A stretch of DNA of 32,000 nt from Opitutales bacterium (GTDB lineage: Bacteria; Verrucomicrobiota; Verrucomicrobiia; Opitutales; UBA9783). The number at the start of each line of letters is the position of its first letter. The stretch's first letter is position 1. Positions 4,230-4,358 of the stretch are shown here, piece by piece. The notes below the pieces were generated by a model, which searched no databases, was not told the origin of the DNA, and was given only the letters and a program-made list of their open reading frames with translations. The DNA lies in NCBI GenBank assembly GCA_024407725.1, contig JAKSVZ010000001.1, positions 60,001 through 92,000 of the forward strand, in the 5' to 3' direction. Position numbers and translations under genes: made by a program.

Positions 4230-4245
4230 AGCATATAGTGTGCCA
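4230..4245 (-). promoter_or_regulatory. Sigma-54-type -24/-12 promoter-like element (proximal) for the 4221-522 operon
   Basis: Minus strand reads TGGCACACTATATGCT, against the consensus TGGCAC-N5-TTGCW. GG and GC have the exact 10-nt spacing. The -12 C is at 4231, 10 nt upstream of the ATG at 4221. Confidence 0.5.
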
Positions 4246-4342
4246 CAAATACCCCAAAAACGCTTCAAATTGCGCTTTTTGCCCTCAAATCAATGATTAT
4301 GAATAAATTTCCCCTGAGCTCAAAAAATTGCCGCTCGCCAAT

Positions 4343-4358
4343 AGCATATTTTAGGCCA
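4343..4358 (-). promoter_or_regulatory. Second (distal) sigma-54-type -24/-12 promoter-like element, same orientation
   Basis: Minus strand reads TGGCCTAAAATATGCT with correct GG-N10-GC spacing. It shares the 10-nt block ATATGCTATT with the proximal element 113 bp downstream. Confidence 0.4.

Follow-up and report, generated by a model that had tools for sequence, protein, structure and literature searches.

A predicted sigma-54 promoter placed for near-leaderless transcription of a three-gene operon in an Opitutales lineage

Introduction

Promoters of the sigma-54 (RpoN) class are -24/-12 elements with the canonical consensus TGGCACG-N4-TTGCW (Barrios et al. 1999, as cited in PMC7482065). Here we analyse an element of this kind, TGGCACACTATATGCT, located at 4245-4230 on the minus strand of a 32,000-nucleotide (nt) stretch of the contig JAKSVZ010000001.1 (hereafter the window) and pointing towards an operon for proteins of 128, 527 and 571 amino acids (aa). 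Like canonical RpoN promoters, the element and its counterparts in related genomes have a GG and a GC that never vary and are separated by exactly 10 nt, extended to TGGCAY and TGCT, and they stand upstream of a gene on that gene's own strand; in relatives they are accompanied by paired palindromes at the usual enhancer distance. They differ from the canonical form in that the lineage consensus is WGGCAY-N6-TGCT, in which the position preceding TGC is unconstrained, being A in the window, and in that the start codon mostly follows the 16-mer after 10-16 nt, for a predicted leader of 0-6 nt.

The sigma-54/CtcC regulon of Chlamydia trachomatis (Soules et al. 2020, PMC7482065) resembles the present case in several respects. 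Both belong to lineages of the Planctomycetes-Verrucomicrobia-Chlamydiae (PVC) group that show signs of host association, both have targets of unknown family that are possibly linked to type III secretion, and just as four annotated chlamydial start codons were moved downstream of a sigma-54 promoter, an annotated start is moved here. Among the chlamydial promoters listed, promoter-to-start distances run from 16 to 178 nt, fliA is not among the direct sigma-54 targets given in that paper, and CtcC is described as having no DNA-binding domain, whereas relatives of the window carry enhancer-type palindromes. The window itself belongs to Verrucomicrobiota (Opitutales), not to Chlamydiota.

Cascades in which sigma-54 acts ahead of sigma-28 are known from the flagellar systems of polar-flagellate Proteobacteria such as Vibrio, Pseudomonas, Campylobacter and Helicobacter; PMC3162934 and PMC7482065 cite work on FlgR and on rpoN/fliA. 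As in these, a sigma-54-type promoter here directly precedes a FliA-family sigma gene, MotA and MotB follow sigma-28 in one related locus (L017; related loci are cited by such numbers), and a second sigma-54-type operon encodes long proteins with terminal helices and weak fold matches to flagellin, FlgK and FlgL. Unlike in the flagellar cascades, the operon proteins match no flagellar Pfam family, and the same genomes hold injectisome-type genes (TyeA, a weak SycN match and an LcrH/SycD-like chaperone). Leaderless mRNAs, for their part, are known, for example, from Sinorhizobium meliloti, with 171 cases having mapped starts (PMC3616915). There as here the ATG lies at or within a few nt of the 5' end and no Shine-Dalgarno sequence precedes it; the leaderless state in our case is a prediction, and one tied to sigma-54 promoters. 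The literature that we surveyed contained no description of a link between leaderless mRNAs and sigma-54 promoters, a combination that the placement of start codons in this lineage predicts.

A conserved -24/-12 element before the operon

The GG (4244-4243) and GC (4232-4231) of TGGCACACTATATGCT lie, with the spacing of an RpoN promoter, exactly where the original prediction had put them, and the element is the best match in the window to the general consensus, agreeing at 10 of the 12 specified positions. A position weight matrix trained on 14 sites, all from distant relatives, gave it a score of 17.3, which ranks second among the 64,000 window positions scored. Comparison across genomes strongly backs its assignment as a sigma-54-type promoter directed at the minus-strand operon. 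An orthologous site is present in L001, L003-L014 and L025-L027, and wherever a locus retains this upstream region, the orthologous first gene has a WGGCAY-N6-TGCT site ahead of it. Within the four close lineages (the window, L027, L003/L023 and L001) TGGCAC and TATGCT do not vary; the element shows just two substitutions there, each at a spacer position. The site is also kept in L004-L014, although the neighbouring homologue of the 527-aa protein is there only 24-37% identical; the intergenic DNA of these relatives cannot be aligned, yet a site is retained before the small first gene, reading TGGCACAAAACCTGCT in L004 and L005, AGGCACAAAATCTGCT in L006, TGGCACAAAACTTGCT in L007, TGGCATAAAATTTGCT in L008, TGGCATTCATTCTGCT in L009, TGGCATTTTTCTTGCT (in two copies) in L010, TGGCACAAAATGTGCT in L011, TGGCATAGGTTGTGCT in L012, TGGCATTGTATATGCT in L013 and TGGCACTGTATATGCT in L014.

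Match statistics point the same way. The pattern TGGC-N8-TGCT occurs four times in the window where 1.08 occurrences are expected, a count reached in 1 of 100 shuffles. Three of the four copies lie on one strand within 200 nt, namely the proximal element just described, a distal element at 4358-4343 and a previously unreported third at 4427-4412; the fourth is at 27263-27278 (plus strand), upstream of a sigma-28 gene. GG and GC are exactly 10 nt apart in all of them, and the weight matrix ranks the sites at 27263, 4245 and 4358 as the top three of the window and that at 4427 as fifth. In non-redundant sequence totalling about 277 kb, or 554,000 positions on the two strands together, 30 sites score at least 15, and all but 5 of these either directly precede a gene start or are the distal element. 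A pattern free of training, WGGC-N8-TGCW, gave 52 sites, 21 of which lie 8-19 nt before the ATG of an open reading frame of at least 60 codons, a placement shared by 4.2% of control positions (binomial P about 7e-16, which overstates independence because the loci are related, although the effect is very large nonetheless). Matches of this kind are thus not spread evenly through coding DNA, and the refuting condition named in the original prediction, an equal frequency in coding DNA, does not apply.

These results bear on the simplest alternative, that the elements are chance look-alikes in a genome with no sigma-54 system. Loose GG-N10-GC matches are indeed common, with 194 in the window, some of them inside coding sequence; the excess of TGGC-N8-TGCT, the matrix ranking, the placement before ATG codons and the conservation of position before two different operons across very divergent genomes nevertheless make this reading extremely unlikely. 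The most reasonable explanation is that 4245-4230 is the sigma-54 promoter of the minus-strand operon, and we consider this account as a whole very probable. In it, sigma-54 RNA polymerase would contact the GG at -24 and the GC at -12, an ATP-dependent enhancer-binding activator would be needed to open the complex, transcription would begin at about 4219, 3-5 nt ahead of the ATG at 4215, and the mRNA would be translated as a leaderless or near-leaderless message without a Shine-Dalgarno sequence.

Start codon and predicted leader

In the mechanical list of open reading frames the first operon gene begins at ATG 4221. This codon reads ACG in L001, the N-termini of all 11 orthologues line up with ATG 4215 (Met3 of the longer frame), and a message beginning at the predicted start of about 4219 could not use ATG 4221. 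Judged from the orthologues, the true start of the gene is ATG 4215, so that the gene occupies 3829-4215 (minus strand) and its product has 128 aa. The original prediction had noted that transcription from about 4219 would force either a leaderless type of mRNA or the use of Met13 (4185). The first option is favoured, as a prediction, by the comparative data; Met13 was rejected as a start codon since it is not conserved among the orthologues, being T, F, V or I in five lineages. With the C of the GC taken as -12, standard sigma-54 geometry puts the transcription start at 4217-4221 on the minus strand, and the leader of the first-gene transcript is predicted to be about 4 nt.

The same build recurs at other sites. 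We measured the gap between the end of the 16-mer and the ATG, for which 10 nt would place the A of ATG at +1. Before the operon this gap is 13 nt in L013 and L014, 14 nt in the window, L001, L003 and L009, 15 nt in L004-L008 and L011, 19 nt in L010 and 26 nt in L012; before the sigma-28 operon it is 11 nt in L019, 14 nt in the window and L017, 16 nt in L015 and 53 nt in L021; and at three further sites, before other genes, it is 10-11 nt. The gap is therefore 10-16 nt at 19 of the 22 promoter sites, which corresponds to predicted leaders of 0-6 nt, and the starts behind the 22 sites are all ATG codons, none of them with a Shine-Dalgarno sequence. The gaps themselves are read directly from the DNA, and translation without a leader would follow if transcription began where the geometry predicts. 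It is highly likely that the proximal element is a genuine sigma-54 promoter driving a near-leaderless operon. The correction from 4221 to 4215 also matters in its own right for the annotation of the first gene.

Strong sigma-54 sites were also seen in L017 at 9522 (minus) and 9726 (plus), in L013 at 1881 (minus) and in L014 at 2012 (minus), 10-11 nt before the ATG codons of other genes (280, 618 and 661 aa), which suggests that the near-leaderless build is general in these genomes. The L017 site is divergent from the sigma-28 promoter of that locus. A perfect 12/12 consensus site, TGGCACGAAACTTGCT, lies in L019 at 9231-9246 (plus) inside a called 217-aa gene, and the next gene follows at a distance of about 390 nt; this could reflect an internal promoter or an erroneous gene call.

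The distal and third elements

The operon is separated by a divergent spacer of 196 nt (4222-4417) from a plus-strand gene for pyruvate:ferredoxin oxidoreductase (PFOR; 4418-7948, ATG 4418; Pfam POR_N, POR, EKR, Fer4 and TPP_enzyme_C), an arrangement kept in L001 and L027. The distal element, TGGCCTAAAATATGCT, lies in this spacer at 4358-4343 on the minus strand and has the GG-N10-GC spacing, in both respects exactly as first described. It scores 15.8 with the weight matrix (rank 3 in the window) and matches the extended consensus at 8 of 12 positions, which is borderline.

The original prediction took the proximal and distal elements to be tandem sigma-54 promoters. If both worked, the distal one would start transcription at about 4332 and give a leader of about 117 nt, and the proximal one would supply the leaderless form of the message. 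Several observations are compatible with such an arrangement: the distal element is the third-best matrix hit of the window; outside promoter-type positions, sites scoring at least 15 number 5 per 554,000, so that the probability of a chance hit within 200 nt upstream is about 0.002; the element is conserved among the four close lineages, in which its block is one of the three most conserved of the spacer (the others are 4387-4365 and 4311-4294); and the 16-mer of L010 occurs, independently of the window, as two identical copies 47 nt apart, and in L009 there is a weak second site, 131 nt upstream. However, the distal element has C after GGC, a position at which the 14 training sites are uniformly A; its counterpart in L001 reads TGGT, it has no counterpart in the distant relatives, and 8 of the 11 lineages have no second same-strand site. 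It also stands upstream of the candidate enhancer-like pair described below, and its conservation could instead serve the divergent PFOR promoter region. The proximal half of the tandem proposal stands, then, and a working second promoter at the distal element is doubtful. The latter is a weaker sigma-54-type site, under some constraint in the immediate sub-lineage, that may act as a minor second promoter or only as a binding site.

A candidate promoter for PFOR itself, TTGATT-18-CATTAT at 4379-4408 (plus strand), was recognised from reading the sequence; its start would fall 2-3 nt before ATG 4418, and PFOR may also be leaderless.

The third element, TGGCGTTCATTATGCT, occupies 4427-4412 on the minus strand, overlaps the PFOR start codon and scores 11.6. 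Sigma-54 forms stable closed complexes without an activator, and one could imagine that the distal and third elements are sites at which the holoenzyme sits on the PFOR control region and start codon without firing, lowering PFOR expression when sigma-54 is abundant. Three same-strand sites within 200 nt, against about 0.003 expected by chance, and the overlap of the third with the PFOR ATG fit this picture, as does the chlamydial hrcA gene, for which occlusion by a sigma-54 promoter nested in a sigma-66 promoter is discussed in PMC7482065. On the other hand, L001 has lost the GC of the third site (TATATT) and weakened the second while keeping the same gene arrangement, 11.6 is a low score, and the PFOR promoter supposed to be blocked is a candidate from sequence reading. 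We regard damping of PFOR as improbable, and the third element may be a chance match within coding or start-region sequence.

The original prediction had also pointed to words shared by the two elements, and their positions were confirmed: ATATGCTATT is common to both (4236-4227 and 4349-4340) and TTATGAATA is duplicated at 4222-4230 and 4297-4305. A partial promoter duplication had been suggested on this basis. Among first-order Markov resamples of the 196-nt intergenic region, 27% contained an exact direct repeat of 9 nt or longer and 11% one of 10 nt or longer, so the repeated words ATATGCTATT and TATTCATAA show no excess over chance in these resamples, and we discarded the duplication argument as evidence. 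Nor is there a common register for a block duplication: TATTCATAA directly adjoins the proximal 16-mer but follows the distal 16-mer by 38 nt. The identity between the two elements falls almost wholly on sigma-54 consensus or contact positions and their flanks have no similarity, a pattern that fits selection or chance better than the recent duplication of a block.

Candidate activator sites and competing signals

Five related loci carry paired palindromes of the form GGAAAAWTTTTCC, perfect or near-perfect and exactly 19 nt apart, 59-113 nt upstream of the first -24 element of the operon (L009 5441-5472, L010 5090-5121, L012 4476-4507, L013 3472-3503 and L014 3609-3640); perfect copies occur nowhere else in 266 kb. 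The layout of the pairs is that usual for enhancer sites and suggests that a sigma-54 activator with a DNA-binding domain, which the chlamydial CtcC lacks, binds to them in those genomes. The original prediction had borrowed the CtcB/CtcC system to argue that no upstream activator site is required. This argument does not transfer, because the relatives are Opitutales or Verrucomicrobia, several of them with such palindrome pairs.

In the window, a degenerate counterpart was found at 4332-4301 on the minus strand, with GGCAATTTTTTGA at 4332-4320 and GGGAAATTTATTC at 4313-4301. As in the pairs of the relatives, its halves are spaced 19 nt, and it stands about as far from the -24 element as those pairs do. 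Its first half varies among close relatives and the thresholds used for it were picked after the data had been seen, and we take the pair as no more than a lead to an activator site.

Transcription of the operon from a different promoter was also considered. A sigma-70-like candidate, TTGAGC-16-CATAAT, lies at 4323-4296 on the minus strand and matches its consensus at 9 of 12 positions; if it drove the operon, the TGGCAC...TGCT motif would have to be an RNA or translation signal in the 5' untranslated region. The four close lineages all retain CATAAT with a TTG upstream of it (at 16-18 nt in L027, L003 and L001), and 4311-4294 belongs to the best conserved blocks of the spacer. Sigma-70-like matches occur, however, at the chance rate (3 found against 3.1 expected), and distant relatives retain the motif without an alignable upstream promoter. 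The motif itself is bipartite in the manner of a DNA site, with invariant GG and GC 10 nt apart, a free spacer and halves that are not complementary. A regulatory RNA in the intergenic region was likewise rejected: no Rfam family reached its gathering score there, and the predicted folding is not unusually stable (z = -0.87). Transcription from the sigma-70-like site combined with an RNA signal is thus very improbable, well behind a sigma-54 promoter at 4245-4230.

Some points weigh against that promoter all the same. The related loci are not fully independent samples, and the sigma-70-like site could also feed the operon. Shine-Dalgarno sequences are rare throughout the window, and their absence at the starts in question therefore carries little weight. 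The window has only the degenerate form of the GGAAAAWTTTTCC pair, with 4 mismatches in GGCAATTTTTTGA and 3 in GGGAAATTTATTC. Finally, neither rpoN, sought through its RpoN-box motif, nor activator signatures were found in the window or the related loci, which are not whole genomes.

A second predicted promoter, before a sigma-28 gene

The highest matrix score of the window, 18.0, belongs to TGGCATCGATTATGCT at 27263-27278 (plus strand), which shares the build of the proximal element and is predicted to be a second sigma-54 promoter. It is separated by 14 nt from the downstream ATG of a FliA/WhiG-family sigma-28 gene (27293-28072, plus strand; NCBIfam TIGR02479, E 3e-54, with 184 bits, slightly under the curated cut-off of 189.6) and lies just downstream of a tRNA-Pro (27098-27174). 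A site of this type is kept before the sigma-28 operons of L015, L017, L019/L020 and L021, standing directly before the sigma-28 gene in L019/L020 and L021 and before a small open reading frame that precedes this gene in L015 and L017. These sites suggest that sigma-54 probably controls sigma-28 in this lineage. The window thus displays the feature that marks the flagellar cascades, a sigma-54-type promoter directly before a FliA/WhiG-family sigma gene, and the lineage appears to run a cascade from sigma-54 to sigma-28. The regulatory order this suggests is one in which sigma-54 would switch on both sigma-28 and an operon of possibly secreted proteins. For this group of Verrucomicrobia from gut and rumen, known through metagenomes only, the analysis supplies two well-anchored predicted sigma-54 promoters and a lineage consensus.

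A broader proposal can be put forward tentatively, as somewhat less likely than not. In this uncultivated, probably host-associated Opitutales lineage, sigma-54 promoters might as a rule start transcription 0-6 nt before the AUG, so that activator-gated leaderless mRNAs would be the standard output of the regulon. Its members would be, among others, the sigma-28 gene and an operon whose secreted products are flagellin-like or tip-like, and the additional elements at 4358 and 4427 might hold down expression of the divergent PFOR gene.

Two proteins encoded at 28105-29754 and 30622-31824 (plus strand), directly downstream of the sigma-28 gene, flank the gene for an LcrH/SycD-like chaperone. Neither has a significant family match, and a long hydrophobic segment near each N-terminus gives them a resemblance to translocators or membrane-inserted secretion substrates.

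The operon proteins

The order of the three operon genes is kept in L001 and L027. The 128-aa product of the first is helical and has a conserved C-terminal motif, W-T-x-[KR]-L-K; it has no Pfam or NCBIfam match, and a homologue search with it returned a single near-identical sequence. The second gene (2244-3827, minus strand) encodes the 527-aa protein, of unknown family, with 32 homologues of which the few that are named are called 'hypothetical protein'. The third (522-2237, minus strand) encodes the 571-aa protein, a paralogue of the second at 24% identity (alignment A2). Together they belong to a small and almost exclusively metagenomic family. None of the operon proteins matched Pfam or NCBIfam, and a sequence profile search of the PDB gave just a 0.015 match to DotZ.

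An AlphaFold2 model of the 527-aa protein (mean predicted local distance difference test score 82) begins with a disordered stretch and has long helices towards both termini, with a region rich in beta structure in the centre. A Foldseek search of the PDB with this model gave no significant match, the weak top matches being flagellin, FlgL and FlgK. The label 'tip-like' that had been given to the operon, or a reading of its products as axial proteins, is compatible with the modelled fold.

Taxon and lifestyle

The window had been read as part of a chlamydial genome. This assignment does not hold: the 12 related genome loci, drawn from a collection of species-representative genomes, are all labelled as Opitutales or Verrucomicrobia metagenome-assembled genomes (MAGs), with rumen or human-gut samples stated outright as the source of several. 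UBA3869, whose protein identity is 77%, is classed under Verrucomicrobiota, and the sigma-28 homologues that carry an organism name are all labelled Opitutales, Puniceicoccales or Verrucomicrobiota, none Chlamydia. The MAG that contains L008 also encodes a protein of the tubulin/FtsZ family (PF00091; L019 13483-14625). Chlamydiae are not known to have FtsZ.

The 'chlamydial' look of the window has its basis in a few genes. These are the LcrH/SycD-like chaperone (window 29943-30566; 52.6 bits, under the family cut-off of 104.8), TyeA with a weak SycN match, of type III secretion, in L017 (18920-19569), and a TLC-family ATP/ADP translocase in L015 (13862-15361). This gene content, together with the tubulin/FtsZ-family protein, suggests that the lineage lives in association with host cells and has in this respect converged with chlamydiae. 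The look, comprising a type III secretion chaperone and sigma-28, belongs to another PVC phylum, which matters when chlamydial regulatory models are transferred. A preprint on rumen ciliate symbionts (10.1101/2025.07.29.667580) makes no mention of Verrucomicrobia or Opitutales, and PMC3162934 contains no statement on Verrucomicrobia.

Two further observations in the window concern other genes. Three proteins without a family match have HExxH-type motifs, namely HELGHA at 12584-13678 (plus) and at 16512-17903 (minus) and HELDHT at 18107-19627 (minus), and may form a family of zinc-protease-like effector candidates. A perfect tandem repeat at 26072-26128 (plus) is made up of 3.8 copies of a 15-nt unit, CTTATAAGGAAACGC, and its last base is also the first of the start codon of a 285-aa gene (26128-26985).

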